This document shows positions 28,599-52,526 of a DNA stretch of 64,000 nt, one piece after another. Positions within the stretch are counted from its first letter, which is position 1, and each line of letters starts with the position of its first letter. This DNA comes from an uncultured Clostridium sp. GTDB lineage: Bacteria > Bacillota > Clostridia > TANB77 > CAG-508. The stretch is from contig CAYJGL010000002.1 of assembly GCA_964369695.1 (NCBI GenBank), positions 35 to 64,034 on the forward strand. The letters are read 5' to 3'. The position numbers were made by a program, and so were the translations under genes. The notes beneath the pieces were generated by a model. The model did not search any database and was not told the origin of the DNA. It worked only from the letters and a program-made list of their open reading frames with translations.

Positions 28599-28654
28599 GG
28601 CCTGTCCCAAAAACGACATAAATGTCGCGTTGGGGACTGTCCCCAATGCGACAC
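28599..28654. repeat. GC-rich palindromic repeat, copy 2 (1.5-unit form); probable terminator of the giant operon
   Basis: Sequence ggcctgtcccaaaaacgacataaatgtcgcgttggggactgtccccaatgcgacac. It is a 54/56 reverse-complement match to copy 3. It lies 30 nt after the stop of the 3396-aa ORF. Confidence 0.9.
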
Positions 28655-28684: not shown

Positions 28685-31600
28685 TTATTTTTTATCTTTT
28701 ATCTTTTGTCTTTTTCCTTTAGAACTAGAACTTCCTGTTGTTTTTATATAATATCTTCTTAATATGAATAAACTTAATATTATTACTCCTATAATTATAT
28801 ATATATATATACTTCCAGTTTGTTCTATACTTTCTCTTGCATTTGAATAATAGTATTCATTTAATTGTGCTTGTTTTTGTATTTTACTTGTTTCTGATTC
28901 TGGTTCTTCTATTTCAGAATCCAATAATTCTGATTCCTTAAATACTTCATAATCATTTGTTTCTGGATTATATACAGTTACATATTCTCTATTCATTAGT
29001 TCTTCTTGATTTACTTCTGGTTTTTCACCGTTTTCGTCTGTTATTTCTAAATTATTCATTGCTACTTCTATTGGTATTTCTCTAAGTTGCTCTTCTATAT
29101 TAGTTGCAATTTGATATTTTTCTTCTTGTTCTTTGTCAATTTCATTTGAATTTCCAAATATGTTTATACTTGCTAAATTAAGTTGAGATGTAATAAAACT
29201 CAATAGACTTGTTTCTGCTGCTTGACTTTGATTAGTTTCCACCCCGTTAGAATCATATATAAGTTTTCCATCTGCATAATCAAAAACTATTACTTGCCCA
29301 TCTGAATACATTGATATTGCCTTAGTTAAATCTCCAAAACTATTTATATGAACAATATTGGAATTTTGATATCCTGTTGGGAAATATACTACATTTTTAT
29401 ACATTTGTATCATATTGTTATCATTCAATACTGCCTGATATACATATTCATTTTTTGTTCCAACTAATATATTGTTAATAATCATTTCATTAGCGTATCC
29501 TATCACTTGTAATAAATTGTTTTGCACTATATATATATATTCTTTATCTACTCCATCAACAGTACTATATGTTCCATATCTTTTTATTATTTGTCCATTA
29601 TATATATATTCTTCTAAGCTATTAACTGTTGATTTCAATATTGCTGATGTTTCTAAATTAGTAATTTGTCCATCATTTAAATTATATATTTCTCCATTAT
29701 CTCTTAATGCTTTTCCATTAAATATATTTAAATATTTATTTACATCATCTATAATTTCTTCTATCATTTTTTCTTCATATTTAACATATCCTTCACTATC
29801 AGTTATTTCCGTAATTTGTAAATACCCTTTTGCTAATGATGTTCCTTTTAAATAATAATAGTTATCTGTTATCTCTATATTATCTGGTAATGTATCTTGA
29901 TCAATTGGAATTACTTCAGTTCTGTTTCTAATACTATCTGCTGTAAATACTTTTTCATTTATAATCTTTCCAGCTGAATTAGTAATTTTTACAGTTATAT
30001 CTGAAATATAATCATATTTTAAAGTATATGTTTTTGATATAATACCTACATTTTCAACTTTCGTATTCCCATTATCATATTCATAAGAAAAAGTAAATCC
30101 ATTGCCAATTGTACTAAAATCTATATTTATCTCATCAATACCACTAGAATACAAATATATCTCTGGAGATATTTCATCTGGTTCAAATCTTTTTTCTATA
30201 ATATTCCCTGATATATCCTTCATTCTTATTAATATATATGTATTTCTATCAAAATCAAATATATATTTACTTGTATTCAAACTATTATTTAATAATTCAT
30301 TATTACCATTTATATAGTCAAATGTCATTCCATTTACTGTTGAACTAAATGTTACTTCTACTTGATTGTCTGATATAGGTAATATTGTAATTTCTGGAAA
30401 TCCTGTTTCATCTACAAATGGATCTTCTGGTATTGGTATTCCTAATTGCGGAAAACTATTTACACTTGCTTTTAATATTGGATATTTAGACATAGATGTA
30501 TTTGTTGTAGAATACTCAAATTTAGTATTTGATAATTTTATATCATTACTATATGTTGAACCTTTTATCAAATCATCATATAGTAAATAATTGTCTTCTA
30601 ATAGTCTATTTTCATCTGTTTGATATACATATTTACCATTTATTGTTGAATATTTATTTACATGTATATTATTAGAATTATTCAAAATATTTATTTTTTC
30701 ATTCCCCACTCTTACTGCTGCATATGCTGCATTTTGAGCCGTTATATCTACATCTACATAAATATTGATATATTTATCAGGTGTACTTAAAGTGTTGCTA
30801 ATAGTCCTTCCTATTATACCGCCTACATTGTCTATTCCTTCTATTTTAGCGCCTCCAATATAAACATTATCCATTACTGTATACGAATCTGTACTTCCCA
30901 TATGACCTACTATTCCACCTATTTCATCTCCGGATCCTTCTATATTTGCATTTGTATATACTCCAGATATTATTGTAGATGCTTCTATTTCTCCAGCTAT
31001 TCCACCAACTCTAACCACTCCTATTATATCTGTTCTATTAGAACTTTCAAAAAATGTATTATAAATTGTTGCCTTCATATCATTATTATAGTATTTAAAA
31101 TATCCCACTATTCCACCAACTCTAGCTTGACCTTTAATACTCGTATTAGTTACTCCACAACCTTCGATTTCAGCTAAACCATATCCGAATATTCCACCTA
31201 TTCCTTGGCTTCCTTCTATAGTTGTATTTTTTACATTACATGAATCTATTTTTCCATGTCCATATGCCAATATTCCTGCAACATTGTTTCTTCCTTTTAC
31301 AATACAGTTCTCAACATTAGAATTACTTATTTCAAAAAATCCTCTACCAGCAGATATTGCAGATACTTGGTTAGTTCCCGTTATTTCTGTATTTTTAACG
31401 CTAATATTTTGTAGATAATATTTATATTGATCTATATCACCATTAATATCTACATCTGGTGTATATCCTATAATACCACCAATATTAAACAATTCTCCTT
31501 TTATTATATTTTTTTCTAAATCCATAATATCTATATTGATATTATTTAATCTAGTACTCGTATTAGCCATTTGACCATAGATTCCACCAACGGCAACACT

Positions 31601-34600
31601 TCCTTCTATATTTATATCGTATAAATTTATATTCATTACCTCTTCTGGTATCCAAGAAGCATGACCTACCAGTCCACCTACCCCTGTATTACCTTTTATT
31701 ACAATATTTTTAATATCAATTGTTTTATTTATATCATCTGCTTTTAATGATACGCTTGATGCTGAACCTATGATTCCTCCTACATAGTTATTTCCTGTTA
31801 TATTTATATTATTTATTTCCATCTTTGAATTATCAATATTTGTTTTAAATATACAATCAACACGTTCAGAAAAGGCAAATAGTCCTCCAGTATAATCATT
31901 TCCTTTTATCGTTATATTATTAAGTGTTATATAATGAGCATCTTTTTGTGTAGTATTTTCATTAATAGCAATGGGTGCTACATAATCTATATTCGGAGCT
32001 TCAATATTTATATCTAGAAAATTTATATTCTTAATATTTCCTGTCATATATACTATTACCCCTGTATTTTCTCCATCTGTTGCACTATTGTTTATTATAA
32101 TATCCTCAAAACTAATTCCCTCAAGTTCTTTAGTAATCATTTTAATTAGACCTATATCTGACCCAGAAGCTAGTATGTTTACATTAGAAATGATCTTTAT
32201 TTCATTCACATCATTTGATTTAATTCTTCCTATCGTTACATTTTTAACTATATCATCTGATGATAAATCTTTAAAATCTAAATCAGCTGCTATATAGTAA
32301 TTTTGATATGTTCCAACATTATCTGGGTTACTAAACCATTGATTCCACCCTGTTATTCCATCACTAGAATCATAATCATTAACTCTATCTATAACTTTGT
32401 AGAATTTAGCATCTATTTTCAATTCTAAATTTTGAGTTCTAGTTTCATTTTCTTTTGTATATTCAATATTTGATACTCTATATGAATCATATGCTTTTGT
32501 TGTTGAATATTTAAGATTTATTTGTGTTTTATATATATCATCATATTCTACATCTAGAAAATGTTCTTTTAATTCTGGATTACTATTTATCTCACTGCTA
32601 CTTACTTTTACAGCTTCTTGAATTCTACTATCATCAGATAATTTCATATCATCTACAATTATATTTTGAATATCTATATCTTGTTTATGATATATGTTCA
32701 TATACATATTAACAGTAAATATTTCTCCTGTTGGTATATTATATGAAAAATCTTGTATAAATAAGTCTTCTAAATTATTCTCTATTTCATTGTCAATTTG
32801 ATATTTAACTAATTCTTCTTCATCTTTATTGTATACTTTAGGCAGTCTTGAAACATTGTCTATATTTTCAATTTTATATGCATTATTTCCATTTGTATTT
32901 AATATTTCATTATATATTTGTTCATTTGATATATCTGAATAAGATAATAGTTTACCTTGTGGGTTATTTAGATTCTTAGCACTAACACCATTTACTAATT
33001 GTTCTTCATATATATATATATCATTTACAGCTTCTATTGTTTGTTGGTTTCCTACTGCACTTCCTATATTATCTGTTACCATTGATGTATATACATTTCC
33101 AAATACTATATTATCGCGTATATGCATAGACTGATTTATTCCTATTAAACCACCTATATTTTCTGAATCTGATGTTATTTTAACATTTGAATACGAATTT
33201 TCTAATAAATCGATATTACCAGTTAAATTTCCTGCTATTCCACCTATTACTGATGTATTTGCATTTATTTCACCAATTACATAACAATTTTTTATACTTT
33301 GAAAATAAATTGGAGATGCAGAATCTGTACCAGATGTTTTACCTATTAAACCACCTATTCCTTCTGAATCAAATATATCTATTGCATTTATGTTAATATT
33401 ATGAACATAAGAATTTTCTATATCTGCTCTTGTTAAATCTGCAACCATCCCTCCAATAGTTATTGTTTGTGCAGAATTCACTTCTATTAAAACATTATTT
33501 ACAGAAGAATTTTTTATACCATTCCCATATGATACTTTCCCTACAAGAGCTGCTATTTCTATATCTCCTCTTGTATTATTACTATATATTTTTACATTTT
33601 TTATATGAACGTTTTCTATTAAACTTTGGTATGCAACTCGTATAAATGCATTGTAATCACTTGTGTTTCCATTATTAATTTCATATCCATCAATAATTAA
33701 ATTTCTTATTTCTCCACCATTCATATCATAAAATATATTTGATTGATTTAGTATATTTATATTTTTAATTACCTTATTATTTCCATCTAATTTCCCACTA
33801 TATGTTTTATTAATTACAATATCTATACTATTTTCATTATTAAAATCAATATCATTCATTAATATATAGTTTTCTGTTACTGCTGTATCATTTAAATCTA
33901 TATTTTTCCATTCTTCTTCAGTTGTTATAGGTTTATATAAGTCTATATTAATAACTTTTTGATCTTCATTATATTTCTTTATATCATTTACAAATCCATA
34001 TTCAATACTTTTTATATCATATTTTGATACATAGACACTTGGATTGAATAATCTAACTGTTAATTGTGTTAGTCCATCTGCTACCAGCTGATTTGTTTCT
34101 AGTATCTCTACTTTTCCAATGTTTTCTATTTCAATATTACCAATATACACATCACTTGGATTAGATATTGTTAATTTTATATCTGCTACAACTTTATCAT
34201 CAGGATACTGATTTATAATATCAGTATATTCAGATAAATCACCACCTATTGTAGTTGGTTTAGTATAATTATTTATTGTCTCTATTGTTGTAATTTCTGG
34301 TATTATTTTTTCTTCAACTATTGGTAATTTATTATACTCTTGTTTTGGCATACAATCTGGAAAGTCAAGATGTGGATAATATCCTGATGATATAAGTTCA
34401 TCTACAATAAATCCATTTGTACTATTTAATACCATATTTTGAAAGTTTATATCATTTAACTCTATAGGTGTTATTTTAGAATGAATTCCATTATCAAACC
34501 TATGTATATTAGAGTAAAAAATGTTTGCTATATTAGCATAATTATCAAGTATAACCGGTCCTGGATTATTTGTAATTGTGGGAACTCCTATTTTTCCGTC

Positions 34601-37600
34601 TATTATATATGAGTTTCCTAAATTAACACTATATATATTCTCAGCAGTTGAATAATGTGCATTTTCCCATACTAAACTATTACCCGATGTATTATTAATA
34701 TTGTTTGTAGTACTTTCTTCTATATCTATTAGTGTATATATATTTTTAATAATAGAATCAATTAGATTTTGTCTAATTATGAGATTAACTTCCAAAGTTT
34801 TTTCAGATTTTTGTATATTACTTCCATACATATATACATTTTCTATCTGTCCCCAGTTTTGCCTTGCTACTCCCGTAAAATTTTCATTTACTATAATCTT
34901 TGTTTCAATATTTATTGCTATATTCTTTATAGTTCCATAATTATAATTTGTAAGAATTCTATAACTTTCTATATTAATCATTTCATTTGGATTGCTTGAA
35001 CTAAGATTTATTTGTACATTTTCTATTATTCCATAATTTATTGATACAAAACTTGTGTAGACTTCTTGTTCTCTTCTATTATCAATTTCTATTTCAAAAA
35101 TAAGATTTTTCAAAACAGATTGTTTTGTTGTGTCTATAAATATATATTGTGTACTTTCATAGGTATTTTTTATAAGTTTTTTTCCATTAAAATCAATTAC
35201 ACCATCGAAAGGAATTCTTGTAGTATTACTATATCCAAAAGTAGATCTTCCTTCTAAATCTATATCATTTATAAATAAATAATTTCCTTTAGGTTGTATT
35301 TCTTTGTATTTCTCTAAATTAGATATACTTTTAATTTCAACTTCATTATCAGTATTAAATTCTATTTTATCTAAAGAATATTTTTGTGTATTTCCATCGT
35401 AATATGATATATTAACCCCTATTTCTACAATATAATCTGTATCTTTTATACAATTATATTGCTTTTCTTTGATTAGATTATATATTGATGAATTAGGTTT
35501 ATTTATAAATTCATCCGCTATATATACTGTTTCAGTTTCGTTAGTATCTTTATTTGTATAATTTAAATAAAATTCAATTTTAGGTTTATCTTGAGTTATT
35601 TCAGATATTGAATACATTTCATTATCATATTCTACTTCAAGTCCGTGTGTTAATTGATAGTTATATTTAAAAGGTTCATAATCTGTTGCTGTACTTCCTA
35701 ATTCAATTTGAAAATCTTTTAAATTTAACCAAGTCTCCATTAAATCGCTTGATTTCCCAGATACATATATACCTAATAGCCCTGTATCAGTTATTTGAGT
35801 CGTATATTCAAATCTTTTTGCATTATCTTCTGTAAAATATGTTTTATAGTCCGAATTATTTAGCAAATTAGTTTTACCAGATGTAGATAATCTATCAGTT
35901 ATATATACACTGTTTAAACTTGATGTATAACCTTTTACAGATGGTATAAACGAGATAGTTATATCTTGACCTATATATTGTTCCCAATCTTCACCTAATG
36001 ATTTTGATATATCATATAAATAGTATTGTTGAGAGTTTGATGTATAATCTCCTACTAATACAGATAATGTATTAGTATTTTTAATATATTCTTTTCCAAA
36101 TACATATCTATCTGTATAAGATGGCGCGCCGTAAAATACAGATCTCCAATTTATATCTGACTCTACGTTAGCCAAATTTTTACTATTATTATTTACTTTT
36201 TCTAACCCATGAAATTCTATATTCGCATTAATTGAATCAATTGTTTTAAATGTCTTTTTTTCTCCTAATTGCTCTTCTAATAATTCTTTATTTTCTTCAT
36301 ATCCAATTTGTTTATTAGTCAAATTATATGTCGGTGCTATTACATTTAATATATATATTTTATTATATTCTAAGTTTGAAAATTCTACTTGTACAAAATC
36401 TTGAGTATTTGTGTCTATTTGTATTATTTTCACTATCTCTCCTGTTTGTTCATTTACTAACTCTAAATTAACTTTTGAAGTTTGATTTATATTTCCATTT
36501 TCAATATCTTCTTTGTTTTGTATTGCATTATCTATATCTTCAAGTTTTATATCAAAAAATATTTTATCTTTAGTTACAAATTCATTTTTTATCAACACTA
36601 TAGGCTTTTCTTTTTGTGTTATAATTTGATTTTGTTCATTTGTCTCATCTAACTTAAATTCAACATACAATTCTTCTGTTATATTTCCTGTAATCACAGT
36701 TGCAACTACTTCAACATTATATATTGTGTTAGATGTTAAATTATCTACTGTTTTTTCTACATAATCAATTGTATTATTTTTTAAATTTTCTAATTCTTCA
36801 TCAGATAATCTATTTGATATTATTTCACCCGTAGTTATGTCTGTTAGTTTTATATCAATATATGAAATTAATTGTATAAGCTGTTCATTTGTTCTATCCG
36901 AATCAATTTTCATATCAAATTTAACAGAGTCAGATGAATTTTCTTTTTCATTAACATCCATATATATTTTTCCTAATGAAGATATATCTACAACTGTAAA
37001 TATGTTTTTATATAGCAAATTGTTTGTTTTTAGTCCTTTACCATCTTCAGTATCAAAATCGGCATATACTTGAATTGTATATATCTCACTTGCACTAAGA
37101 TCTTTAACTATTCTTTCTTCTTTTTTATCTTTCAAATTTTCTTTATATACTATTTCTCCATTTTGTTTTAAAATTTGAAAATAATAATTTTGTAATTCGA
37201 CATCATCTTGATTATCTTGTATAAATTCTAATTCTACAGCTGCTGGTGTTTCTGTTATTATTGTTACATCCACATTTGGTTCTGTTTTTGATGTTCTAGT
37301 TGCTCCTTTATTATTTTCTACTATTAATTGATTGAAAAATTTATCATATATTTTTATTTCATAATTAATTTCACTATCACTTTTTACTGTTTCTTCTGTC
37401 TGATAATTTATACTTTCTCCATTTAATAATTTATTTATATCTGATTTAGATATATTATATATTAATCCATTAACAGTTATTTCTATTTTGGCTATACCAT
37501 TTAATACTTCATCTGATAATTCGTTTTGAATTTTAAGATTTTTAAGTTCAATTTTATTTGAATATATATCTCCATTTTCATAAGTCATTTTTATGGTCTC

Positions 37601-38875: not shown

Positions 38876-38904
38876 ATATTTTACTACCTTCCAAAATATT
38901 ATAT

Positions 38905-39699: not shown

Positions 39700-39743
39700 T
39701 TAAACTTAATCCTTTCATTTTGTTTTTAGATAGGTTTTATTTT

Positions 39744-40286
39744 TTATTTTTTGTTTTTTTGTTTATCTTCTAATTTCTTTTCCTGTATTTTTCTATCTGT
39801 TAATGTTTCTACAAAGTTTTTTAATAAGAAATATAGTACATATGTTATTAAAAATACTGTTAAAGCTATTTGAATTAAGAAAACATAATTTTCATCTGAT
39901 ACGTGTATTCTATATTCTTGTAATATATTAATAAAATATATCAAGAAAACTTGAGCTGTTATATTGAAAATTTCAAAAATACTTCTTTTTAAAATTATAA
40001 ATATTATGTCTGCAAATATAATCATAATTATAGTTGTAATTACATTTGTTTGATATATTATAACAGCATATACTATTAAAATTGTTCTTATTAGTATACT
40101 GCATAACATAGCTATTTGCTTACTTTTTAATGCTGAAATTAATCCAAAATATCTTGTTCCTTTTTTGTGTATATTTATTTTTTTTGTATTTAAATATATT
40201 AGTATACTACCTGCTAATATTATGATAAAAAAAACTAATGTCAACATTAAATAATTGGTTAAATTATACATTATATATTCAGACAT
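39744..40286 (-). CDS. small polytopic membrane protein (about 5 TMs) with intramembrane Arg and Asp
   Basis: 180 aa. Hydrophobic segments include CSILIRTILIVYAVIIY and IIMIIFADIIFIIL. Lys/Glu-rich C-tail. No family recognised. Confidence 0.65.
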   Translation of the reverse strand: MSEYIMYNLTNYLMLTLVFFIIILAGSILIYLNTKKINIHKKGTRYFGLISALKSKQIAMLCSILIRTILIVYAVIIYQTNVITTIIMIIFADIIFIILKRSIFEIFNITAQVFLIYFINILQEYRIHVSDENYVFLIQIALTVFLITYVLYFLLKNFVETLTDRKIQEKKLEDKQKNKK

Positions 40287-40346
40287 ATTTACTCCTTTTA
40301 TTTTCCATTTTAAATTTTATTTATTCTGCTTCACAATTTATCTATT

Positions 40347-40377
40347 AATTATCTATCAAAGTTTTTTTGATAGATAA

Positions 40378-40379
<2 letters not shown>
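40347..40379 (-). other. intra-operon stem-loop at the 3' end of the ATPase module
   Basis: Perfect 14-bp inverted repeat aattatctatcaaa / tttgatagataatt with a 5-nt loop. It overlaps the stop codon of the epsilon-like gene. No U-run follows on the minus strand. Confidence 0.45.
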
Positions 40380-42019
<1,640 letters not shown>

Positions 42020-42820
42020 TTATTCTTCCTTACTTTTTATTTTTACAAAATTTTCAACTACTTTTTTAAAGTTCATATTTTTAATTTTTTTTCTATTTTG
42101 TAAGTCTTTTTCTTCTTCGATTTCATCTATCTTTTTTAGTGAATCACTTGTAATTCTTTGTCTCATAATATTTTCAGATGCATAACTATTTTCAACAGCT
42201 ATCTTAATTTCATATGATATGTATAATGCAATTAAATTAACTAATATATTTTGTATATTTCCTTCAACAGTAAAATCTTCGTTATATTTAATTTTTGTCT
42301 TTTCTTTACTATCTTTATCAATCGGCAATACTTTTTTCTTAGTAAATTCAATATTACTTATATTGTGATAATGATTATATATAATGTTTATTTCACTATT
42401 TTTACCTTTTTGAATAATATCATATATACATTCTTCTATTTGAACATCGTTCTCTATGTATTCTTCTTTTGTCATTGACATTAATACATTATCTTTTTTT
42501 CCAATTATTTTTTTTCCAATTATTATTTTATCTGCATCTTTTTCTTTAATTGCTAAACTATTTACATTTGTATTAAATCCACCACAAAATCCTAAGTCAT
42601 TTCCTATATATATATTTAATGGTTTTGCTTTTTTATTTAGTTTAACTGTTTTTTGGTCTAATATTAGATTTTTATTATTCAATATATTATCCATAAAATC
42701 TGATATGCTTTTTTCATATTCGAAATATTTTTCTGCTGTTTTTTTCGAAGAGTCTACTCTTAATAATGCATGAAAATTCATAACTTTAATTACATTTTTA
42801 ATTTTCATTAATACCCTCAC
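42020..42820 (-). CDS. atpG: F1 ATPase gamma-like subunit
   Basis: 266 aa between the alpha and beta genes. The N-terminal IKNVIKVMNFHALLRVDSSKKTAEKY resembles the gamma N-helix (I.S..NT.KIT.AM..VA..K..+A), and the C-terminus is helical. It overlaps the alpha stop. Sequence similarity is weak. Confidence 0.55.
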   Translation of the reverse strand: MRVLMKIKNVIKVMNFHALLRVDSSKKTAEKYFEYEKSISDFMDNILNNKNLILDQKTVKLNKKAKPLNIYIGNDLGFCGGFNTNVNSLAIKEKDADKIIIGKKIIGKKDNVLMSMTKEEYIENDVQIEECIYDIIQKGKNSEINIIYNHYHNISNIEFTKKKVLPIDKDSKEKTKIKYNEDFTVEGNIQNILVNLIALYISYEIKIAVENSYASENIMRQRITSDSLKKIDEIEEEKDLQNRKKIKNMNFKKVVENFVKIKSKEE

Positions 42821-44129
42821 TTAGATTTTTAAATTTTTCTATTATATCTTCATTTGAAAGCGGTGAATATTTATGTTGTTTTAGTGCTTCTTGTATTTTT
42901 CTACCTTCAATCATTTTTGTTCTTAGTTCTTCACTCATTTCATCCATATTTGCTAATTCGTATACTTCTTTTGTTTCTAAATAACTTAAGAATTTTCTTC
43001 TTATATCTGCTCCTAATTTTTTAATTTCAGAAGATTGAACTGCTCCACCTAACCTAGATACTGATACACCATAATCTATTGCTGGTTTTTGTCCTTTACT
43101 AAATTGTTTTTCTGATAATACAATTTGCCCATCTGTAATCGATATTATATTTGTAGAAATATAGTCTGTTATATCTCCACCTTTTGTTTCTACTATTGGT
43201 AGTATTGTTATAGAACCACCATTTTTATGTTGACACCCTTTTTCTAGTAATCTTGAATGTGTATAGAATATGTCCGCTGGATATGCTTCTCTTCCTGGAG
43301 TTTTTCCAGATAATATACTTATTTCTCTGTATATTTCAGCATGTTTTTTCAAGTCATCTATTACAACTAAAACATCTCTTTTCATATTCAAATATTCTTC
43401 TGCTATAGATAACCCTACATAAGGTATTAGGCTAAGTACTGGTGCTGTATCTTCATTTGTTGCAACAACCATTGTTGTATATGAAGTAGCATTTTTTCTT
43501 GATAATTCATTATATATAGATTTTATTTCTTTTTTTGTTTTTCCTACTCCTATATATATACATATCATACCTTTGCCTTTTTGATTTACTATAGTATCTA
43601 AAGCTATTTGTGTTTTTCCTACTTTTTTGTCTCCTATTATTAATTGTCTTTGTCCTTTTCCTATTGGATATATTAGATCAATCCCTGATATACCTGTAAG
43701 CATTGGTCTTTTTACATCTGTTCTATCCATTATTGGAATTGTTTCATTTTCAATATTTATATATTTTACATCTTCAAAGGATTTTCCAACTAATAAATCT
43801 ACACCAAATAAGTTTGTTACTCTTCCTAGCGCTTCTTTTGCAAATATTGCCTTTAGGCTTTCACCTGTAGAATTTACTATATCTCCAACTTCTATAGGAA
43901 AATATTGTTTCACTAGTGCAACAGATACATAGTTTTCATTTATTTCGTTTACATATCCCATTCCTTTTTCCCATATATTAACTTTTTCAAAAAATTTAAC
44001 ATTTTCTAATCCTGATACATGTATTATGTAGTCTGTTACTCTTATTACTTTTCCTGAATCAAAAACATTTTCTTCATTTTTAATTTGTTCTATCTTTTTA
44101 TTTAATAAATTCTCTATATGTGTTGCCAT
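42798..44129 (-). CDS. atpA: F1 ATPase alpha-like subunit (short C-terminus)
   Basis: RQLIIGDKKVGKTQIALDTIVNQ (alpha Walker A context), VLVVIDDLKKHA, GREAYPADIFYTHSRLLE, GSITILPIVETKGGDITDYISTNIISITDGQIVL and PAIDYGVSVSR. At 443 aa it is shorter than the ~500 aa typical length. Confidence 0.9.
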   Translation of the reverse strand: MATHIENLLNKKIEQIKNEENVFDSGKVIRVTDYIIHVSGLENVKFFEKVNIWEKGMGYVNEINENYVSVALVKQYFPIEVGDIVNSTGESLKAIFAKEALGRVTNLFGVDLLVGKSFEDVKYINIENETIPIMDRTDVKRPMLTGISGIDLIYPIGKGQRQLIIGDKKVGKTQIALDTIVNQKGKGMICIYIGVGKTKKEIKSIYNELSRKNATSYTTMVVATNEDTAPVLSLIPYVGLSIAEEYLNMKRDVLVVIDDLKKHAEIYREISILSGKTPGREAYPADIFYTHSRLLEKGCQHKNGGSITILPIVETKGGDITDYISTNIISITDGQIVLSEKQFSKGQKPAIDYGVSVSRLGGAVQSSEIKKLGADIRRKFLSYLETKEVYELANMDEMSEELRTKMIEGRKIQEALKQHKYSPLSNEDIIEKFKNLSEGINEN

Positions 44130-44146
44130 ATTATTTTTCCTTTCGT

Positions 44147-45007
44147 TTATATACTATAATCATATATTTGACCTCTGTATATTATCATTACACCTTCTGA
44201 CATATTTTTATAAAAACATGTTTTAATATTTTCGTTTAAATGATCATAATTTAAATCTTTTATTCCTACGTATATATATATAGTTGGATCATATTGTTTA
44301 ATTATTCTTTCTAAATAATCTACTAATTTAGTTATAGTAAATTTGTTAATGTTTGAAAATTCCTTTTCTAAATCAACTATTTTTTGAACTTCTTTTGTTG
44401 TGACTTGTTTTACTAATTCATATTGCTCACTATTTGTAAATGTTAATAAGTCATATATTACTTTAGGCGAAAATTGATCCTTATATTTTTTTAATAATTC
44501 ATATTCTTTTGCCATTTTCACACTACCACGTTTTTTGGTTTTGTTTTCTAAAAAGTTTTCTATAACTTCTCTATTATCAATATTAAATTGTTTTTTTAAT
44601 TCTTTATAGTTATAGAAGAAACCTTCTTCTTTATATTTAGGTGATATGTTTTCGATTCCTAAATTATTTTCTTCTTTTTTTATAATAGCTTCTTTTACTC
44701 TTAACTTTTCCTTATATTCTTTCATTCTCACTAATTTATTCTCAATATCATTATCAAATAATAAATCAGTATCTTCTTTTTCTAGCATTTCAACTATTTT
44801 AGATTTTTCTTTTATTTTCTGCAATCTTTCTAAAATTTCATCATATTCTTTTTGCTTTTCATCTATTAAATAATTATATTCTTGTAATGTTCTAAGAAAA
44901 TATTTTTTTACATTTTGATCTATTCTTTTCACAAGATTTTTTAATATATAAAAACTGAATATGAACATTATACCTACTATTAATATTGCTTGAATTATTT
45001 CTTCCAT
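44147..45007 (-). CDS. peripheral-stalk-like protein (b-like N-terminus, possible b-delta fusion)
   Basis: One N-terminal TM (IIQAILIVGIMFIFSFYIL) and a long charged coiled-coil-like region. The C-terminus EGVMIIYRGQIYDYSI resembles the delta/OSCP end (..GG..I.VGD.V.DGS.). It occupies the atpF/atpH position. Confidence 0.45.
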   Translation of the reverse strand: MEEIIQAILIVGIMFIFSFYILKNLVKRIDQNVKKYFLRTLQEYNYLIDEKQKEYDEILERLQKIKEKSKIVEMLEKEDTDLLFDNDIENKLVRMKEYKEKLRVKEAIIKKEENNLGIENISPKYKEEGFFYNYKELKKQFNIDNREVIENFLENKTKKRGSVKMAKEYELLKKYKDQFSPKVIYDLLTFTNSEQYELVKQVTTKEVQKIVDLEKEFSNINKFTITKLVDYLERIIKQYDPTIYIYVGIKDLNYDHLNENIKTCFYKNMSEGVMIIYRGQIYDYSI

Positions 45008-45022
45008 ATTTCACCTACCACT

Positions 45023-45283
<261 letters not shown>

Positions 45284-45292
45284 TTATATTTA

Positions 45293-45328
45293 TTGTATGT
45301 GTAAATTTTTTACCATCTACACATACAA
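45293..45328 (-). other. intra-operon stem-loop at the 5' end of the ATPase module
   Basis: Perfect 11-bp inverted repeat ttgtatgtgta / tacacatacaa with a 14-nt loop. It lies between the stop of the 484-aa gene and the c-like gene. Confidence 0.45.
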
Positions 45329-45332
45329 TTTA

Positions 45333-46787
45333 TTAATATACTCTCACCATAGCACTTACATCTGGCGATATTTTTGTTCCGCTATAATACACATCTTCAA
45401 GTCTTACTTCTATAGTAGAACACACTTCTCTATCAAATGTATATACCCATCCATTATAGCTTGCTGCTTGTGAAATATTTACTTGCTGTTTATATGTTCT
45501 TTCACTTTCTGTTCCTTTATCTAATATCATTACAATATTTGCACTTTGATATATATATTTTTGATCTATTTTTAATGTTCCTGTTATATTGTTTACTCCT
45601 ACTTTATCGATTGTTACACTTGATGAATCATCTTTTGTTCTAATTACAATTACATCTTCTATATTCTCTTTTACTGTTCCATTTTCTTTAATTTCTTTAG
45701 AGTTTAATGAAACTGTGTATTCTTTATTTGGGTTTAAACCTGTTATTGTATATGATGTTTGGTTTTTATCTAGTGATATAGTATCATTTTTATCTCCAGA
45801 TAAGACTAAGTATACTGTTTGATACATGTTTTCAACATCTATTATAGAATAATCTACTGTAATTGTTGATGATGTTGATGATGAACCTCTTAAACTTATG
45901 CTTTTAGCAACTGGTGTTTGTGAATCAAAGTTTTGATTTCCTGAATTAGTTCCTGTTCCACCTGTATTTCCATTATTATTGCTATTGCCATTATTAATAT
46001 TTATGTCTGTATTATTGCTATTGTTGTTATTATAGTTATTACTATTATTATTTACTACTGATTGTCCTGTTTGCTCAGATTCATCATTCTCTTCTTCTGT
46101 ATTAGTACCTTCTACAACATCTACTTTTTCTATATATTCATTTGTACTTCCTATTATTTTTTTAAGATCTATTTCTCCATCACTATAAATTAATTTTTCA
46201 TTTGCTATATCAAATTCAAATGAATCTGTTATTATTGTCATCGGATTTATAATTTTTGTATTAACTTCATGATTTTGTAATAATGTATTTCCAGATCGAT
46301 CTATAGTTACTATTAAATAATTTTCAGTATTTAGTGTTCCTGTTGTATCAACAATCTCTGATGCTATTATTAAATACTTTCTATCTTCCAATTTATACAA
46401 TTGACTATCAGAATAATCTAATATTTCAGTTCTACCAGAATATTTTTCTACTTGTCCACCTAATGTTACTTTATATATTTCTCCAAATACGTCTAGAGTT
46501 ATAGCATTTTGATTTAAGACTATTGCATGTTCTCCTAATTTATATTCATTATTTTCTTCTTTTATATAATAATTATTATCCCACTTTCTTTCTATTTCGC
46601 TCTTAGCTTTTAATTCCATTGGATTATCTTCACTATCGTAGAAAAATGTATTTGATGATAATTGATACTTTGAATCCTCCCTATCTGAAATTATATATAA
46701 ATATGTTACTAATATTGCTATAATAAGTAGTATTATTATAAAAAACACTACAAAATTTTTCTTATTCCCATTTGATAATTTTCTCAA
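45333..46787 (-). CDS. bitopic surface protein (484 aa): tail-TM-juxtamembrane domain-Asn-rich linker-FN3-like domains
   Basis: TM FVVFFIIILLIIAILVTYLYII. Low-complexity linker NNNSNNYNNNNSNNTDININNGNSNNNGNTGGTGTNSGNQN (~45918..46106). FN3-like GLNPNKEYTVSL. Confidence 0.8.
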   Translation of the reverse strand: MRKLSNGNKKNFVVFFIIILLIIAILVTYLYIISDREDSKYQLSSNTFFYDSEDNPMELKAKSEIERKWDNNYYIKEENNEYKLGEHAIVLNQNAITLDVFGEIYKVTLGGQVEKYSGRTEILDYSDSQLYKLEDRKYLIIASEIVDTTGTLNTENYLIVTIDRSGNTLLQNHEVNTKIINPMTIITDSFEFDIANEKLIYSDGEIDLKKIIGSTNEYIEKVDVVEGTNTEEENDESEQTGQSVVNNNSNNYNNNNSNNTDININNGNSNNNGNTGGTGTNSGNQNFDSQTPVAKSISLRGSSSTSSTITVDYSIIDVENMYQTVYLVLSGDKNDTISLDKNQTSYTITGLNPNKEYTVSLNSKEIKENGTVKENIEDVIVIRTKDDSSSVTIDKVGVNNITGTLKIDQKYIYQSANIVMILDKGTESERTYKQQVNISQAASYNGWVYTFDREVCSTIEVRLEDVYYSGTKISPDVSAMVRVY

Positions 46788-46799
46788 TTATATCACCTC

Positions 46800-49700
46800 C
46801 TACCAATTTATTGTTATACTGTTATAAATCATTATTTCTTTTGTATCTGATTGATCTGCAGTCTCTTCATTTGGAATTTCCGTAAAACAAGCAATTGTAA
46901 TTTTATTATTTGTTTCTGGATATGGATCAGCTGATTCTAATAATAAATATTTCATAGCAGGATCATTTGGATCTACAATAAATGTTTTACCATTTTCCGA
47001 ATCTATTAATATCTCTGTAGAATCTTGAGTGTTTATTGTGTACGTAATTCTTGATATTTCTCCTAAATTTAAACTATTTTTAAATTCTAAGTATAAATTC
47101 CCATCTGCATGTTCAGTAATACTAATTTCTCCTATGTCTATGTTATTTTCATTTTCTATTGCTTTTAGAATTGAAGAACTGCTAATATACTCATTTTGAT
47201 CTATTTCCCCATCATTATTTTTATCAAAATCTATTCTCATAGATATTTCATAGTTCAAATTATTAGAATATATTCCTTTTGAATTATCTAATGTTATTCT
47301 TGATAACTGATTAGTAGTCATTTGTGTATTTTCTTCAAGTATTTTTGTATTTGTATTCATATTTTTTACAGTTAAGTTTAAGTTATTTCCAACAAAATTA
47401 TATTGTCCAGTAACCAAAGTTGGTGTTATTAAAATATCTGAATTTTCCATATTATTGCCATCCACTCTGACTGTAGTAATATTTATACTAGGTAACCCCG
47501 GATTAAATATAAATTCTTCATTGTAATCTATTCTACTTATTAAATTTCCACTTTTTGATTTTATTAAAAATGTAATTTTATATTTATGATCTGTATCAAA
47601 TATTATTCTACTATCGCCTTCTACAGTATTTACTTGTACTGAATTTTTAATATTAACACTTGTAGTAGGACTAATATATGGATTACCCGATTTTAGTTTT
47701 TCTTCTCCGTTTTCATACAATATATATTCTATATCATATCCTTGTGTTGTTCCACTAAGTATATCATATGATAAAGTTGCTGTTTCTAATCCATCATTTA
47801 GCCTAAAGCTTACATTTCCAAAATCTACAAGACCTAATGTCGCAAAAATATATATGTTACCTGATTTATTAAGATTCGAATCATAAATATACTCTACATT
47901 ACCTTCTTTTTTGTTATATATTCTTACTCCGTATCTTGTTCCTGGTTGAAGATTTTTTATTTCTGCTGTTACTTTTCCTGTGCTAGAATCATAAGTTGAT
48001 ATATTTAGTTCTGTCCATGTTTCATCTTCTATAACCCCACCACTTGAATCTACTTTTACATACTCTATATATATTTCATCTTTTTTTACAGCTTGTTCTA
48101 TTCCATTTTCAAACATACCTTCTATGTTAAAATTAAATGTGTATGAATCCATTAGAGTTGAATATTTATTATTATCCACAGAATTTATAGACATTGGGAT
48201 ATATGAGTTGTCTAATGCTATATTCTCATTTGTGATTGTTTTGTTCTTTATTTCTTTTGCATAAATAATATTGTTATTATACATTATTCCTTTATCTGTT
48301 ATTGATATAGGAAGTTTTATTTCATTTCCATTTTCATCATTTAAAGTCATTTCTGTATCTGATATTGATATAATTGAAAAGGTTGTTGCTTCTGTGACTA
48401 CTTCTGTTAATTCTAATCCATTTTTTCCACTATTATATTTATATAATTTACCATTTTCATTTTCTATTATTATAGGGTTATTTGAATTTTCTCTAAAATC
48501 AATTATTGATGAATCGTAATATATATTTGTTTCAATTTTCAAATCTGTAAGGTCTGCTGTTCCTATTAAATTAATTAATTCAATATAATTAACTAATAGT
48601 GTATTATTTGATAGTACATTAACATTTCCCATTATTTTTGTATTACCATCTTTTGTAATTGCTAACGATACATATGATATTGATTTTTTATGTTCTTCTG
48701 TTAATCCATTTATTTTTATTTCAAATCTATTTTCATCATATTCTCCAATATCTGTTGTTACAGATTCAAAATCTAAAACTCCTTTATAATCAAATTCAAT
48801 TAATTTTTGTTCTGTTGAAACGCTACTATCACTTAACTTATATTTGATAGCAAATTGTAAATTCCCAACTAATATATTATTTATTTTTAATTGCTGATAT
48901 ATGCTTATATTTTTATTTAAATCATATCTACTTACATTTCCTGCATTTGTCATAATCAATTCTTTATTTTGTTCTTCTATTATAGCATTATCAATATCAA
49001 TTACTTTATATTTTAATGTCAAATTAGAATCCACATCTAAATATTCTGGATACATATATGTATCTGGTAGTTGTTTAGGTACTACTCCTGCTACTGAAAA
49101 ATATTTTACACCTTCATCAATTTGTTCTTGAGATGGTAAAATGATTTCAAGTGTGCCATCTTCTCCACCTTCTAATACAATATTATATTCAAATTTATAT
49201 GATACTCCTCTTTTTAAAACATTAGCATCATTATAATTTCCTAATTCAAAATAAGCTGATAAAATTTCATCTTCTGTTTGTCCAACTTGTATCCTAGTAT
49301 TTATTGTATTCTCATCAATAGTTACTTCTTTAATTTCATTTAAAGGATTTCCATTACTATCTAAGTCATATACTCTATATGTAATACTTTTAACTGTAGA
49401 TACATCATAAGTATTTTTAGGATATATAGCAAACCCAACATTTGTACTTTCTAATAAACTATTGTAATCAGTAGTTGTATTTAAGCTTGCTGTGTATAAT
49501 AAACTCTCTTCTCTTTGTTTTTTAGTGATTTCTTGTATTTCTAATGCGTCATTAATTTCATCCCCTTGTGGTCCTACTGGCATAAGATAATTCGTTTCAT
49601 ATATTTCTATTTTATTATTTTGAAGACCTATTTTATTTCCAACATAGTCTCTAGCTTCAGAAATTTCAATTATATATTGATCATGTACAATATCATCATT

Positions 49701-52331
49701 AGTTAATTTTTTACTACTGTTAGTTGTACTCGTAAAACTACTAGGAATAATATTTAAAGTATTATTTTTAATATCTTCCGATATTGAACTTGTATAATAA
49801 TCACTGTTTTGATCTTGAATTTCAGCTACTCCTATTGCACTTCCTATTTTTTCCAAACTTTTACTTCCATCAGCATTATTCAATACATTAGCTCTATATA
49901 ATTCTACTTCTAAACTATTAAGTGTTTTCAATTCTAATTCGTTAATATTATTAAATAAACCTACTTGTATATTAAATTTATTTGTCAAATCACCTGCATT
50001 GTTAGTTAGAGAGAATTGTAAATCTTTTGGAATTTTAGTATTAACATATACAGATCCTAAATACACACTATCAGTTTTATTTTCCATCAATATCACTTCA
50101 AACTCGTATGTAGTATTTGATTTTAGATTGTTAATATCTATAGGTATTGCTGCTACTACATTTGAATTAATAGTTTTTTTATTTCCTAATCCATCTGAAT
50201 AGTTTACAATTATACTATCTGTTGTATCATCAATCATATTTGCAGGATCACTTATTTGTATTTCACCTTGAATTCTCTCAAATGTAACTAAACTATTACC
50301 ATCTATATCAAAACCTTCATTAAATTTTATAGTTGGAATCTGAAGTTTATCGAATTTCATTGTGGAACTTCTGTTGCTTGTCAATTCTTGATATTTTTCA
50401 TTATCATAAAATTCCACTATAACTTCAAAATAGTATTCAGTATTTCTGTTGATGTCCCCTTCTATTTTAACTGTTTCTCCATTATCTTTTATTTCTTCTT
50501 TATCCACTGTTATTACAGTTTCAGGTGTAGATGAATTTATCTCTACAACAGGCTTTTTATTTATATTTCCATAATCTTTTTCTTCATATACCATAAATGT
50601 ATATGACTGTATACCTTTATCTTTATCAGATATTCCATTTAATTTAAGGTTTACTTGATTGTTTCGTTCATCATATTGAAATTCTGGTGTTGAAGATATT
50701 GTAGGATATTGTTTTAATGTCACATGTTGCTGAGTATACGAAGTATTAGAGTATTTAACATTATCTATAATAACATCTTTTATATTCACTATATACGAAC
50801 TATTATTTACCAATCCATTAAAAGTAATTATTTTATCACTAGTTTGTGTTACTGTTTTTTGTTCTATATAATTTCCATTAATGTCTGTTAATTCAACAAC
50901 AGCACTTTGAACTCCTGTATCTTGTTGGAATTCCATTTCAAAAGAAAGTGAATTTGGTGTAAATACTTCTTTTTTAAGTTCAACTCCCATTATATTTGTT
51001 CTAAATATTTTATATACAAAAGTTTTATTATATGTAATATCTCCTACTTTATATTGTCCTTTAATCTCCAATGTATATTCATTATCTGGTTCTAAATTTT
51101 CATACGAAATTATACTTGTATATACCCCTTCTGGTATTTCGGAAGTATATACTTCTGAATTTGTATTGTTTTTTATTATTCTTACAGTTGATGAACCTGT
51201 TAAAACTAATTGTTCATCTATAATTTCTATTTCTGCTTGCATTTTTACTGAAGATGTTTCAAATCCTACAATTTTAAAAGTTGGCTCTGTAATTTGTAGA
51301 CTACTAACATCTACAGATGGTACAAAATTTGTGTCGCCTGTTGTCTCTCCTAAACCTGTATCTGTATTGTTTGTATTTCCCTGAATATTTGTATTTTGCG
51401 AATTATCATTATTAGTACTGCTGCTAGTTTGTCCGTTTTGTGTAGAACTTTGATTATTTTCTTCTGAAATAGTTTGATTTTCTGTCTCGTTTAATTCTTC
51501 TACATTTTCTTCTGCATCTTCAACTTCATAGCTAGCTAAATCTACAATATCAATGTTATCATCAGAATCTAAAACCATATTCTCCATACTTAACAAAGGA
51601 ACATTTGCTTTTGATATTATTTTATTTGATAAGTCTACTTTTACATCTCCAGGTATTTGTATATTTACATTTGAAGCAATTGTTTGATAACTTAACTCTT
51701 GATTATATATTTTAATAATTTCGTTATCGATATATTCTATTTCTAAGTATCCATTTATTTCTTTTGTTTCTGCACCATTGTCCAATGTTAATGTTATCTG
51801 ATTTGAAGCTATTAAATATTTATTTTCGCTTATTTTAAGTATTAAATTCGTAAATTCAAGCTCATCATTCAAATTCATAACAGTATATTTATCTTGATTT
51901 TTTAGTAGAGTTTTATTCACTGGTAATGTATAATATACAATTGTTTCTTTCTCTATTTCATCCAAATTTAATAGTACTGCATTTTTAAAAACTCCTATAG
52001 AACCATCTCCATAGTGAATGAAATCGTCTTGTTCTATAGTGGTAGGATTACCTTGAACATCTTCAAATTCTATTTGTTCCATATAATTTTCTGTATATTC
52101 TTGTTCTTTATCAAAATATATCCTGTTTATATCTGTATTTTCTTGCGAGTTGCTTGCTTGTAATATATATCCAGATTCATCAAATGTTTTAATTTTAGAG
52201 TTTTGATTTTCAATTGTTATATATATCAAAAAAGAAATCAAAATAATAATTGTAATCAGTATTACTCCTAGTTTCCACCATCTTAAAAAAAAGTTAACTT
52301 TTTTATCTGTTTTTCTTGTATTTTTTTCCAT
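46800..52331 (-). CDS. giant (~1843 aa) N-terminally anchored surface protein with FN3/Ig-like repeat array
   Basis: The ORF is open to 52367, but GGAGG-N5-ATG supports the MEKNTRK start at 52331. TM LGVILITIIILISFLIYITI, an acidic/Asn/Thr/Gln-rich linker, then many FN3-like units (LEPDNEYTLEIKG, NRNTEYYFEVIV, LKSNTTYEFEV, LQPGTRYGVRIY). No C-terminal TM. Confidence 0.85.
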   Translation of the reverse strand: MEKNTRKTDKKVNFFLRWWKLGVILITIIILISFLIYITIENQNSKIKTFDESGYILQASNSQENTDINRIYFDKEQEYTENYMEQIEFEDVQGNPTTIEQDDFIHYGDGSIGVFKNAVLLNLDEIEKETIVYYTLPVNKTLLKNQDKYTVMNLNDELEFTNLILKISENKYLIASNQITLTLDNGAETKEINGYLEIEYIDNEIIKIYNQELSYQTIASNVNIQIPGDVKVDLSNKIISKANVPLLSMENMVLDSDDNIDIVDLASYEVEDAEENVEELNETENQTISEENNQSSTQNGQTSSSTNNDNSQNTNIQGNTNNTDTGLGETTGDTNFVPSVDVSSLQITEPTFKIVGFETSSVKMQAEIEIIDEQLVLTGSSTVRIIKNNTNSEVYTSEIPEGVYTSIISYENLEPDNEYTLEIKGQYKVGDITYNKTFVYKIFRTNIMGVELKKEVFTPNSLSFEMEFQQDTGVQSAVVELTDINGNYIEQKTVTQTSDKIITFNGLVNNSSYIVNIKDVIIDNVKYSNTSYTQQHVTLKQYPTISSTPEFQYDERNNQVNLKLNGISDKDKGIQSYTFMVYEEKDYGNINKKPVVEINSSTPETVITVDKEEIKDNGETVKIEGDINRNTEYYFEVIVEFYDNEKYQELTSNRSSTMKFDKLQIPTIKFNEGFDIDGNSLVTFERIQGEIQISDPANMIDDTTDSIIVNYSDGLGNKKTINSNVVAAIPIDINNLKSNTTYEFEVILMENKTDSVYLGSVYVNTKIPKDLQFSLTNNAGDLTNKFNIQVGLFNNINELELKTLNSLEVELYRANVLNNADGSKSLEKIGSAIGVAEIQDQNSDYYTSSISEDIKNNTLNIIPSSFTSTTNSSKKLTNDDIVHDQYIIEISEARDYVGNKIGLQNNKIEIYETNYLMPVGPQGDEINDALEIQEITKKQREESLLYTASLNTTTDYNSLLESTNVGFAIYPKNTYDVSTVKSITYRVYDLDSNGNPLNEIKEVTIDENTINTRIQVGQTEDEILSAYFELGNYNDANVLKRGVSYKFEYNIVLEGGEDGTLEIILPSQEQIDEGVKYFSVAGVVPKQLPDTYMYPEYLDVDSNLTLKYKVIDIDNAIIEEQNKELIMTNAGNVSRYDLNKNISIYQQLKINNILVGNLQFAIKYKLSDSSVSTEQKLIEFDYKGVLDFESVTTDIGEYDENRFEIKINGLTEEHKKSISYVSLAITKDGNTKIMGNVNVLSNNTLLVNYIELINLIGTADLTDLKIETNIYYDSSIIDFRENSNNPIIIENENGKLYKYNSGKNGLELTEVVTEATTFSIISISDTEMTLNDENGNEIKLPISITDKGIMYNNNIIYAKEIKNKTITNENIALDNSYIPMSINSVDNNKYSTLMDSYTFNFNIEGMFENGIEQAVKKDEIYIEYVKVDSSGGVIEDETWTELNISTYDSSTGKVTAEIKNLQPGTRYGVRIYNKKEGNVEYIYDSNLNKSGNIYIFATLGLVDFGNVSFRLNDGLETATLSYDILSGTTQGYDIEYILYENGEEKLKSGNPYISPTTSVNIKNSVQVNTVEGDSRIIFDTDHKYKITFLIKSKSGNLISRIDYNEEFIFNPGLPSINITTVRVDGNNMENSDILITPTLVTGQYNFVGNNLNLTVKNMNTNTKILEENTQMTTNQLSRITLDNSKGIYSNNLNYEISMRIDFDKNNDGEIDQNEYISSSSILKAIENENNIDIGEISITEHADGNLYLEFKNSLNLGEISRITYTINTQDSTEILIDSENGKTFIVDPNDPAMKYLLLESADPYPETNNKITIACFTEIPNEETADQSDTKEIMIYNSITINW

Positions 52332-52418
52332 ATTTCCTCCAACAAATTCTAGTTGTATTTTATACATTTTTTATACACATAATTCTAAATATATTATATA
52401 CTATTTGTGTGTGTTTTT

Positions 52419-52480
52419 CTACAAAAATTGTAGTTTTAAATATTACATTTATATTACAGTTGTATTACAGTTGTATTACA
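52419..52480 (-). promoter_or_regulatory. candidate operator region of the giant operon: four phased TGTAATA heptamers plus a 6-3-6 palindrome
   Basis: The plus strand has TATTACA at 52441, 52452, 52463 and 52474, spaced exactly 11 bp apart. The palindrome ctacaa-aaa-ttgtag lies at 52419..52433. A TATAAT (minus strand) lies at 52398..52393. Confidence 0.4.
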
Positions 52481-52526
52481 TTTACAATATACAAAAAAGC
52501 AAACTTTTATATCTAACTTTTAATAT

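Follow-up and report, generated by a model that had tools for sequence, protein, structure and literature searches.

An F1-like ATPase encoded among giant membrane-anchored proteins: a candidate ATP-driven surface machine

We analysed a stretch of 64,000 nucleotides (the window) from an uncultured Clostridium sp. of the GTDB lineage TANB77, CAG-508 (NCBI GenBank assembly GCA_964369695.1, contig CAYJGL010000002.1, positions 35 to 64,034 of the forward strand). Here, 11 genes form one compact minus-strand unit, running from window position 52331 down to 28685, in which the genes of an F1-like ATPase lie between those of giant surface proteins anchored in the membrane. The module is real, widespread and apparently undescribed, and it appears to share the principle of the F1-like systems of mycoplasmas without being a member of their families. 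On balance, we favour reading the unit as the genes of a dedicated rotary motor that is not chemiosmotic, hydrolyses ATP and performs mechanical work on surface proteins, and we hold any specific output of this motor with less confidence. The catalytic sites are intact, and the rotor-binding loop of the c-like subunit and a putative stator are retained, which argues for a working rotary engine. The ring would be blind to ions and the a subunit is missing, which argues against ion transport or ATP synthesis. Finally, a fixed linkage to the anchored proteins, gene fusions and shared membrane-proximal domains suggest that it is these surface proteins that receive the output.

Until now, F1-like ATPases driving surface machinery have been regarded as a peculiarity of mycoplasmas. 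The module would make this idea widespread in gut and rumen bacteria, as its gamma subunit was detected in 278 or more species-level genomes, most of them uncultured metagenome-assembled genomes (MAGs) labelled Clostridia or Bacilli, with lineages of higher GC content also represented. As both ring and stalk are retained, the rotary logic can be read from the genes, and the module may represent a natural experiment in which ion coupling has been removed from an F-type rotor. It also suggests, at the level of function, what some of the largest unannotated surface proteins of abundant, uncultured gut clades may do. For TANB77 itself, a link with how patients respond to cancer immunotherapy has been described (PMC11680825).

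Gene content, catalytic subunits and membrane sector

The genes of the unit and the sites at its two ends are listed below in window coordinates (aa, amino acids; TM, transmembrane helix; ORF, open reading frame).

46800-52331, minus strand: giant 1, 1843 aa, one N-terminal TM
45333-46787, minus strand: 484-aa anchored protein (p484), N-terminal TM, fn3 domain
45023-45265, minus strand: c-like proteolipid, 80 aa, PF00137
44147-45007, minus strand: putative b-delta fusion stalk, 286 aa, N-terminal TM
42798-44129, minus strand: alpha-like subunit, 443 aa, PF00006
42020-42808, minus strand: gamma-like subunit, 262 aa from a conserved ATG (the maximal ORF starts at 42820), PF00231
40652-42016, minus strand: beta-like catalytic subunit, 454 aa, PF00006
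40378-40662, minus strand: short epsilon-like protein, 94 aa, located after beta
39744-40286, minus strand: 5-TM membrane protein, 180 aa, five predicted helices
38905-39699, minus strand: 264-aa anchored protein (p264), basic cytoplasmic tail, one N-terminal TM
28685-38875, minus strand: giant 2, 3396 aa, N- and C-terminal TMs
52393-52421, minus strand: promoter-like site TAGAAA-17-TATAAT, between the greA hairpin and giant 1, 10 of 12 matches
28623-28653, strand not given: GC-rich 31-nt palindrome with a T-rich tail, a terminator-like end of the unit and a dispersed repeat

Searches with Pfam and NCBIfam models identified alpha (PF00006, 6.9e-73), beta (PF00006, 6.3e-69) and gamma (PF00231, 7.6e-26). 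The catalytic motifs, which the original prediction had called intact, were all located in beta and are strongly conserved across the family, with GGAGVGKT in 81/83 members and GERSREG in 83/83; DELSEED is present in beta together with them. The arginine-finger motif SVSRLG of alpha occurs in all 75 members compared. The alpha/beta pair of a canonical F1Fo enzyme, with Walker A, catalytic Glu and arginine finger, is thus encoded here. On the NCBIfam model for atpD, beta passes marginally (466.9 against a cut-off of 462.85), alpha remains under the atpA cut-offs (404.6 against 484.45 and 443.9 against 554), and gamma scores 62.4 bits on TIGR01146, far under the cut-off of 194.45. The best Protein Data Bank (PDB) matches of beta are F1 enzymes of the Bacillus type, at 376-393 bits, and alpha matches Bacillus-type F1 at ~330 bits; the G1-beta of Mycoplasma mobile was the lowest-ranked PDB match of beta, at 317 bits. 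The PDB alignment of alpha begins at residue 3, indicating that the part to which the peripheral stalk binds is retained, and ~70 C-terminal residues are absent.

The 94-aa protein after beta is probably an epsilon subunit reduced to its beta-sandwich. Among its seven PDB profile matches, three were ATP synthase epsilon or mitochondrial delta (E = 0.29-1.4), and PF02823 (ATP-synt_DE_N) was the sole Pfam family to recur in the epsilon-like proteins (2/25 members, best E = 0.0035). The claim that epsilon is short stands, with N-domain signals that are weak and recurrent. Taken alone, the short epsilon is a weak argument, as the epsilon subunits of Chlorobi and Bacteroidetes likewise lack the C-terminal half (PMC4154653).

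Several loci of the family (cited by L number) depart from these subunit lengths. Long C-terminal extensions are seen on alpha in L039, L053, L056, L058 and L067 (up to 1090 aa) and on beta in L005, L024 and L026 (up to 712 aa), the extension in L024 being acidic and of low complexity; these extensions are C-terminal, in contrast to the N-terminal extension of the M. mobile G1-beta. In L005, L024, L038, L040, L048 and L068, which come from different assemblies, alpha is split into two ORFs (~92-245 and ~147-310 aa), and in L040 beta is split as well. An assembly error, a programmed event or a recurrent frameshift could each account for the split.

The c-like protein matches PF00137 (7.7e-8), with the c1 and c2/3 subunits of the Na+ F-ATPase of Acetobacterium woodii as its best PDB matches. 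In the alignment with A. woodii c2/3, the ion-binding Glu (AVAETTG) is replaced by Ala and the helix-1 Gln (GIGQG) by Met. The absence of the carboxylate, predicted from this single locus, proved to be a family trait, as no acidic residue occurs anywhere in helix 2 in 76/77 family members, each a different species. The GRNPETK loop, in contrast, is present in 77/77. In canonical enzymes, the c loop contacts gamma and epsilon. With this loop kept and the ion-binding residues lost, the rotor could still grip the ring, and neither H+ nor Na+ would be carried. An invariant C-terminal motif, LLF[YF]NP, was considered as a new extracellular coupling site and dropped, since canonical c subunits end in LLFANPF.

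Searches with Pfam and NCBIfam models yielded no ATP-synt_A match among the ORFs of the unit. The 5-TM protein sits where an a subunit might be expected; however, the 26 members of its family gave no ATP-synt_A signal, and a profile search of the PDB found no relative. The prediction that no a subunit is encoded was thus upheld, in that none was detectable in either set, and at a remote level the 5-TM protein may still be very distantly related to one. An AlphaFold2 (AF2) model built from five homologs reached a pLDDT of 46 with five helices predicted and was not used further. The 5-TM protein is a candidate membrane stator. In eight loci (seven labelled Lachnospiraceae and one Clostridia), it is fused with the 264-aa protein into one protein of ~400 aa, which ties the membrane partner of the ATPase to the anchored-protein family. 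Further long p264 ORFs in L009, L012, L015-L017, L019 and L020 were rejected as such fusions, since they carry K/E-rich cytoplasmic tails instead and the 5-TM gene of L016 lies in another frame. In one subclade, the p264 homolog has a K/E-rich cytoplasmic tail of ~230 aa (e.g. L016, 12974-14395).

The 286-aa protein, predicted to be a b/delta-like stalk, has no Pfam match and no PDB relative by sequence or profile search. Its AF2 model (pLDDT 81.6) contains two long helices, one of them a TM-plus-stalk helix of 76 residues, together with a helical bundle and a small beta-sheet. In Foldseek searches with this model, the top 32 matches and 35 of the first 39 were ATP synthase delta/OSCP or mycobacterial b-delta fusions, with probabilities of up to 0.99 over 140-170 aligned columns, in agreement with the prediction. 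We therefore read the protein as a single b-delta fusion stalk, in which the b and delta parts of a canonical F1Fo peripheral stalk would be present, by modelled fold, as one polypeptide.

Anchored proteins, conserved linkage and hosts

All four anchored proteins begin with a basic cytoplasmic tail followed by a single TM helix. Giant 2 was predicted to be anchored at both ends, and TM windows were indeed found at residues 47-56 and 3353-3355, the C-terminal one also with a basic tail; this second TM is kept in the complete 2720-aa ortholog of L088, the most divergent family member. Whole-protein Pfam scans of both giants gave no match. Scanning in pieces placed fn3 (25.1 bits) and Glug (23.3 bits) once each above cut-off in giant 2, and fn3 is above cut-off in p484 as well (26.9 bits). 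The FN3 and GLUG labels of the original prediction hold to this extent; the fn3 array that it had assigned to giant 1 does not, the signal there being sub-threshold only (19.5 bits). Residues 1737-1923 of giant 2 match a domain of PDB entry 3n6z, a 'putative IgA1 protease' (E = 2.9e-4), and 13 GG[ILVM][ILVAF][GA] motifs lie between residues 1808 and 2685. Neither the protease motif HExxH nor the sortase motif LPxTG was found in the anchored proteins.

BLASTP detected no similarity among the four anchored proteins, so the proposed paralogy of p484 and giant 1 is not visible at that level. It is visible in profile-profile comparison, where hhalign matched the N-terminal TM and membrane-proximal region of giant 1 with p484 over 214 columns (97.9% probability, E = 3e-13). 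The 264-aa protein was matched to the N-terminus of giant 2 at 88% and to that of giant 1 at 68%, and a PDB profile search with its family found no relative. These profiles suggest a membrane-proximal domain that links two of the anchored proteins clearly and the other two more weakly.

One genome per species was scanned with family-specific gamma motifs, and 80 loci of the 278 genomes matched were fetched with ~10 kb on each side of the match. The same gene order was found in 80/80 loci, and the deepest branches of the family share the layout. Giant 1 is adjacent to the ATPase core in 62 of the 64 loci with enough flank, both exceptions having split ORFs, and giant 2 is adjacent in 42 of 59 informative loci; p484 is present in 71/80 and p264 in 76/80. 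The original prediction had named, as the result that would speak against it, ATPase modules in relatives that are never linked to surface-protein genes, and the linkage is instead near-universal. The giants are collinear orthologs, giant 1 in 63 loci (~29% identity) and giant 2 in 50 (~30%). For beta, identity falls from 72-76% in the nearest relatives to ~60% in those furthest away, and more than 120 database clusters lie at 72-90% identity, with no named protein among them. Giants at ~30% beside a beta subunit at 72-76% identity form a pattern typical of exposed surface proteins.

GC content ranges from 22 to 61% among the loci and is roughly that of the respective host, pointing to a long residence of the module rather than a recent transfer. 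The host range is far wider than the single walled spore former of the window. By record title, the MAGs are Clostridia, Clostridium sp. CAG:354, Ca. Merdicola, Bacilli, Lachnospiraceae, Oscillospiraceae and Family XIII, and contigs labelled Roseburia and Butyrivibrio also carry the module. Contigs of 52-61% GC that carry it are labelled Bacillota, Family XIII and Oscillospiraceae (L043, L049, L050, L061, L070, L077, L079, L080). A full 11-gene module at 59.8% GC was found in a RefSeq isolate record titled Bifidobacterium colobi LC6 (L074; NZ_JAFEJU010000010.1, 27141-47932), the host being taken from the record title; if this record is genuine, it provides a culturable host in a different phylum and implies horizontal spread. 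Two contigs of 26% GC with a near-identical module, labelled Muribaculaceae (L057) and Ignavibacteriales (L071), are probably mis-binned or mislabelled. Bifidobacterium, Roseburia and Butyrivibrio have ordinary ATP synthases, and, going by the record titles, the module would be an extra system in these genera.

All 11 ORFs of the unit were found where they had been predicted, within the bounds that had been proposed for it: at the upstream end, greA (52571-53047) is followed by an AT-rich hairpin, and at the downstream end the palindrome, which is the 'repeat copy 2' of the original prediction, lies just past the last stop codon. Giant 1 was taken to start at 52331, since a GGAGG ribosome-binding site lies 6 nt before that ATG; this gives 1843 aa (the maximal ORF has 1855), matching the predicted length. 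The unit is tightly packed, with overlapping stop and start codons and terminator-like hairpins at both bounds. Its intergenic distances had been put at 12 to 91 nt and range in fact from -11 to 91 nt, with 11-nt overlaps at alpha/gamma and beta/epsilon and a spacing of 3 nt between gamma and beta. Matches as good as the promoter-like site are no commoner in the window than in shuffled sequence, given its AT-rich composition (25% GC), which makes this site weak evidence; promoter scans were set aside as uninformative in such DNA. The palindrome, with the core GCGTTGGGGACTGTCCCCAATGC and a length of up to 31 nt, has copies at 23807-23829, 28627-28649 and 62072-62094, where none would be expected by chance at 25% GC. 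The copy at 28627-28649 stands just past the stop codon of giant 2 and is followed by a T-rich tail, and by its sequence the element looks like a REP-like or terminator repeat.

The remaining genes of the window, at ~25% GC, include spoIIIAA/AE/AH, alr, FemAB, ftsH, ackA-pta, pfk, pgk and iPGM, a set that indicates a walled, fermentative Firmicute with sporulation genes; the spoIIIA genes, alr and FemAB bear out the walled, spore-forming host that had been named. Two GtrII-like glucosyltransferase genes and a gene for a 661-aa KAP-family P-loop NTPase lie at 864-2357, 21619-23178 and 25884-27869, with no link to the unit seen. A PADLOC scan of the unit gave no match, and the unit is therefore not a known defence system.

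Proposed mechanism and competing explanations

In the mechanism that we propose, the alpha3beta3 hexamer would hydrolyse ATP and turn gamma-epsilon together with the c-ring, and the b-delta stalk with the 5-TM and 264-aa proteins would serve as the stator. As no ion can be carried, torque or cyclic strain would instead be transmitted across the membrane to the anchored proteins of 484, 1843 and 3396 aa, whose large extracellular parts (FN3, GLUG beta-helix, adhesin-like) would be moved or reset at the cost of ATP. Possible uses include catch-and-release adhesion, surface movement and the removal of bound host molecules. A bolder version of this mechanism is a rotary surface motor of walled bacteria, in which an ATP-driven gamma-epsilon-c-ring rotor, released from ion transport, acts through a Gram-positive envelope to drive, and perhaps to turn or crank, giants docked by their single TM helices on or within the ring. 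We regard this version as tentative and rather doubtful. If true, it would be a third way, beside the flagellum and the archaellum, to deliver rotary work outside a prokaryotic cell, and would likely serve as a model of the origin of the type 2 and type 3 systems of mycoplasmas from F1Fo.

Several observations weigh against the motor reading. Position 67 of the 5-TM protein, within the membrane, is R/K in 63/68 sequences and position 105 is E/D in 54/68, a combination that could hint at an unconventional ion path. One c-like gene of the 77 (L039, 6327-6569) encodes a helix-2 Asp ('IVDTV') near the canonical ion-binding position. The assignment of epsilon is sub-threshold, and the Foldseek E-values behind the delta-like fold are modest, from 4e-3 at best to ~1. 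Giant 2 is non-adjacent in 17 of the 59 loci and is thus an accessory part. Conserved synteny reports co-inheritance and not physical interaction, and assembly, rotation and coupling are all inferred.

The alternative that survives best, which we still find unlikely, is an export or assembly engine. Here, the F1-like hexamer and a FliH-like b-delta stalk would energise the secretion, insertion or wall-crossing of the giants, in the manner of FliI-FliH-FliJ, with no later movement. F1 and type III secretion system ATPases are homologous, and beta reaches 224 bits at best on FliI/SctN models; the cut-offs of these models are 380 bits or more, and the unit has separate alpha and beta genes. At 1843 and 3396 aa, the giants would be unusually large cargo for a Gram-positive envelope, and the basic cytoplasmic tails of the four anchored proteins, long and K/E-rich in some orthologs, are possible docking sites. 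However, the unit combines an alpha/beta heterohexamer and gamma with a c-ring whose F1-binding loop is intact and with a delta-like cap, and together these are the parts of rotary coupling and not of a translocase. Pfam and NCBIfam searches found no FlhA/FlhB-like export-gate homolog in the unit, and the anchored proteins have ordinary signal-anchor N-termini that suit Sec/YidC.

A little less probable again is a highly diverged housekeeping F-type ATPase or synthase, with the 5-TM protein as an unrecognisable a subunit, a non-canonical ion route and the giants as mere neighbours. The canonical E-F/H-A-G-D-C gene order, the narrow pass of beta on the atpD model and the embedded basic residue of the 5-TM protein would fit such an enzyme. 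No second alpha/beta copy was seen in any of the ~10-kb flanks, and a fermenting host (ackA-pta, glycolysis) still needs to maintain its membrane potential. Yet the c carboxylate is missing throughout nearly the whole family and the helix-1 Gln is also lost, and to our knowledge no F or V rotor works without the c ion-binding site. The a-subunit Arg is invariant in canonical enzymes, whereas the basic residue at position 67 of the 5-TM protein is Lys in 20/68 sequences. Also against a housekeeping enzyme are the lack of an ATP-synt_A signal in the 26 5-TM family members, the scores of alpha under all atpA cut-offs, the linkage to fast-evolving giants across 22-61% GC and the contigs labelled as genera that, as far as such labels allow, normally have standard atp operons.

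Finally, a decaying ATP synthase remnant that lost atpB and the c carboxylate and lies near surface genes by chance is very improbable and effectively refuted by the conservation data: a missing a subunit, shortened alpha and epsilon and the split alpha of six loci would suit decay, but the catalytic motifs are nearly invariant across 75-83 sequences, subunit lengths and order are kept in 80 or more species spread over 40 points of GC, and beta is 72-90% identical in the closest 120 clusters.

Comparison with known rotary and surface ATPases

In an exhaustive search of 1.84 billion representatives with beta, the family appeared as four clusters at 562-763 bits, with the next match at ~383 bits, and beta is ~41% identical to the nearest representatives outside the family. 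In a rough neighbour-joining tree of beta, the family has a long stem and is separate from the G1-beta-like clade, with other divergent betas as its neighbours. By these comparisons, beta and alpha appear to form a discrete clade nearest to canonical Firmicute F1. We found no paper that describes the module, in line with the claim that the arrangement was undescribed; literature searches on TANB77 and ATP synthases or ATPases brought up no relevant paper, and a detailed TANB77 genome paper is silent on it. Two of the neighbouring beta clades could be viewed in context, L087 (2383-8281) and L095 (3051-9068), the contigs of two other neighbours being too short. Both have a different operon, which comprises two unknown proteins of ~255 aa, an OSCP-like protein of ~155 aa, alpha, gamma, beta and an 80-84-aa epsilon, with no c gene called and no giants; housekeeping genes flank it in L095, and the betas are under or near the atpD cut-off.

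Among described enzymes, the canonical F1Fo ATP synthases (Bacillus PS3, A. woodii) share the most parts with the module: the same gene order, an alpha3beta3-type pair, gamma, an epsilon N-domain, a delta fold and a b-like helix, as well as a c hairpin with an RNPE loop and an LLF(Y/A)NP(L/F) C-terminus. A fusion of b and delta also occurs in mycobacteria, and in A. woodii c1 one hairpin has Gln in place of the ion-binding Glu. In contrast to these enzymes, the module has no a subunit, its only c gene lacks the carboxylate, alpha is ~70 residues shorter, alpha and gamma score under the cut-offs of their models, and the whole is embedded between giant surface-protein genes. The N-ATPases, alternate F1Fo enzymes that translocate Na+, offer the parallel of a second, divergent F-type operon that coexists with a standard one in some genomes. 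They lack delta and have atpR, atpQ and an ion-binding c (PMC4154653), whereas a delta-like domain is present here, and the scores on their NCBIfam models are far under the cut-offs (beta 412.2 against 752, alpha 368.2 against 750.5).

The closest functional parallels are the type 2 and type 3 systems of Mollicutes, in both of which a 12-TM protein stands in place of c and there is no stalk (PMC12994834, PMC11864180). The original prediction had placed the unit outside both types, and this agrees with NCBIfam scores under the cut-offs, a different gene set and the separation from the G1-beta-like clade; it had also pointed to a retained c-ring-like gene, which the PF00137 match confirms, unlike in the type 2 and 3 clusters. 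The type 3 F1-like X0 ATPase is encoded in a seven-gene cluster with a 12-TM protein and neither c nor b/delta; it is found in Mollicutes only, always with MIB-MIP, and the Walker A lysine of its beta is needed for antibody removal at the surface (PMC12994834). The module shares with it an F1-like ATPase genetically linked to surface proteins and the concept of an ATP-energised surface. Its scores on the type 3 models are under the cut-offs (beta on MSC_0618, 404.5 against 570; alpha on MSC_0619, 307.3 against 520), and in place of the type 3 partners Pfam names only fn3 and Glug domains, no search having been aimed at MIB/MIP models.

The type 2 system drives the gliding of M. mobile (MMOB1610-1670, with Gli123/Gli349/Gli521) and is thought to hydrolyse ATP and to transmit force through the membrane to giant anchored surface proteins (PMC11864180, PMC12994834). 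Like the module, it has an alpha/beta/gamma/epsilon-like set derived from F1 with intact catalytic sites, and giants of similar size with terminal TM anchors. The scores on its models are again under the cut-offs (beta on MMOB1670, 389.8 against 850; alpha on MMOB1660, 375.5 against 600). Type 2 has neither a c subunit nor a peripheral stalk, its alpha lacks the N-terminal H1 helix, its beta carries an N-terminal extension of ~300 aa that is absent from the beta described here, and its genes run in the order 12-TM protein, small cytoplasmic protein, gamma, epsilon, large protein with a signal peptide and two TMs, alpha, beta. In the module, by contrast, the gene order is canonical, c, the putative b-delta stalk and the N-terminus of alpha are all retained, and there are walled bacteria among the hosts. 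By analogy with these systems, we infer that the module follows a principle like that of Mollicutes types 2 and 3 and was independently built, with ring and stalk retained.

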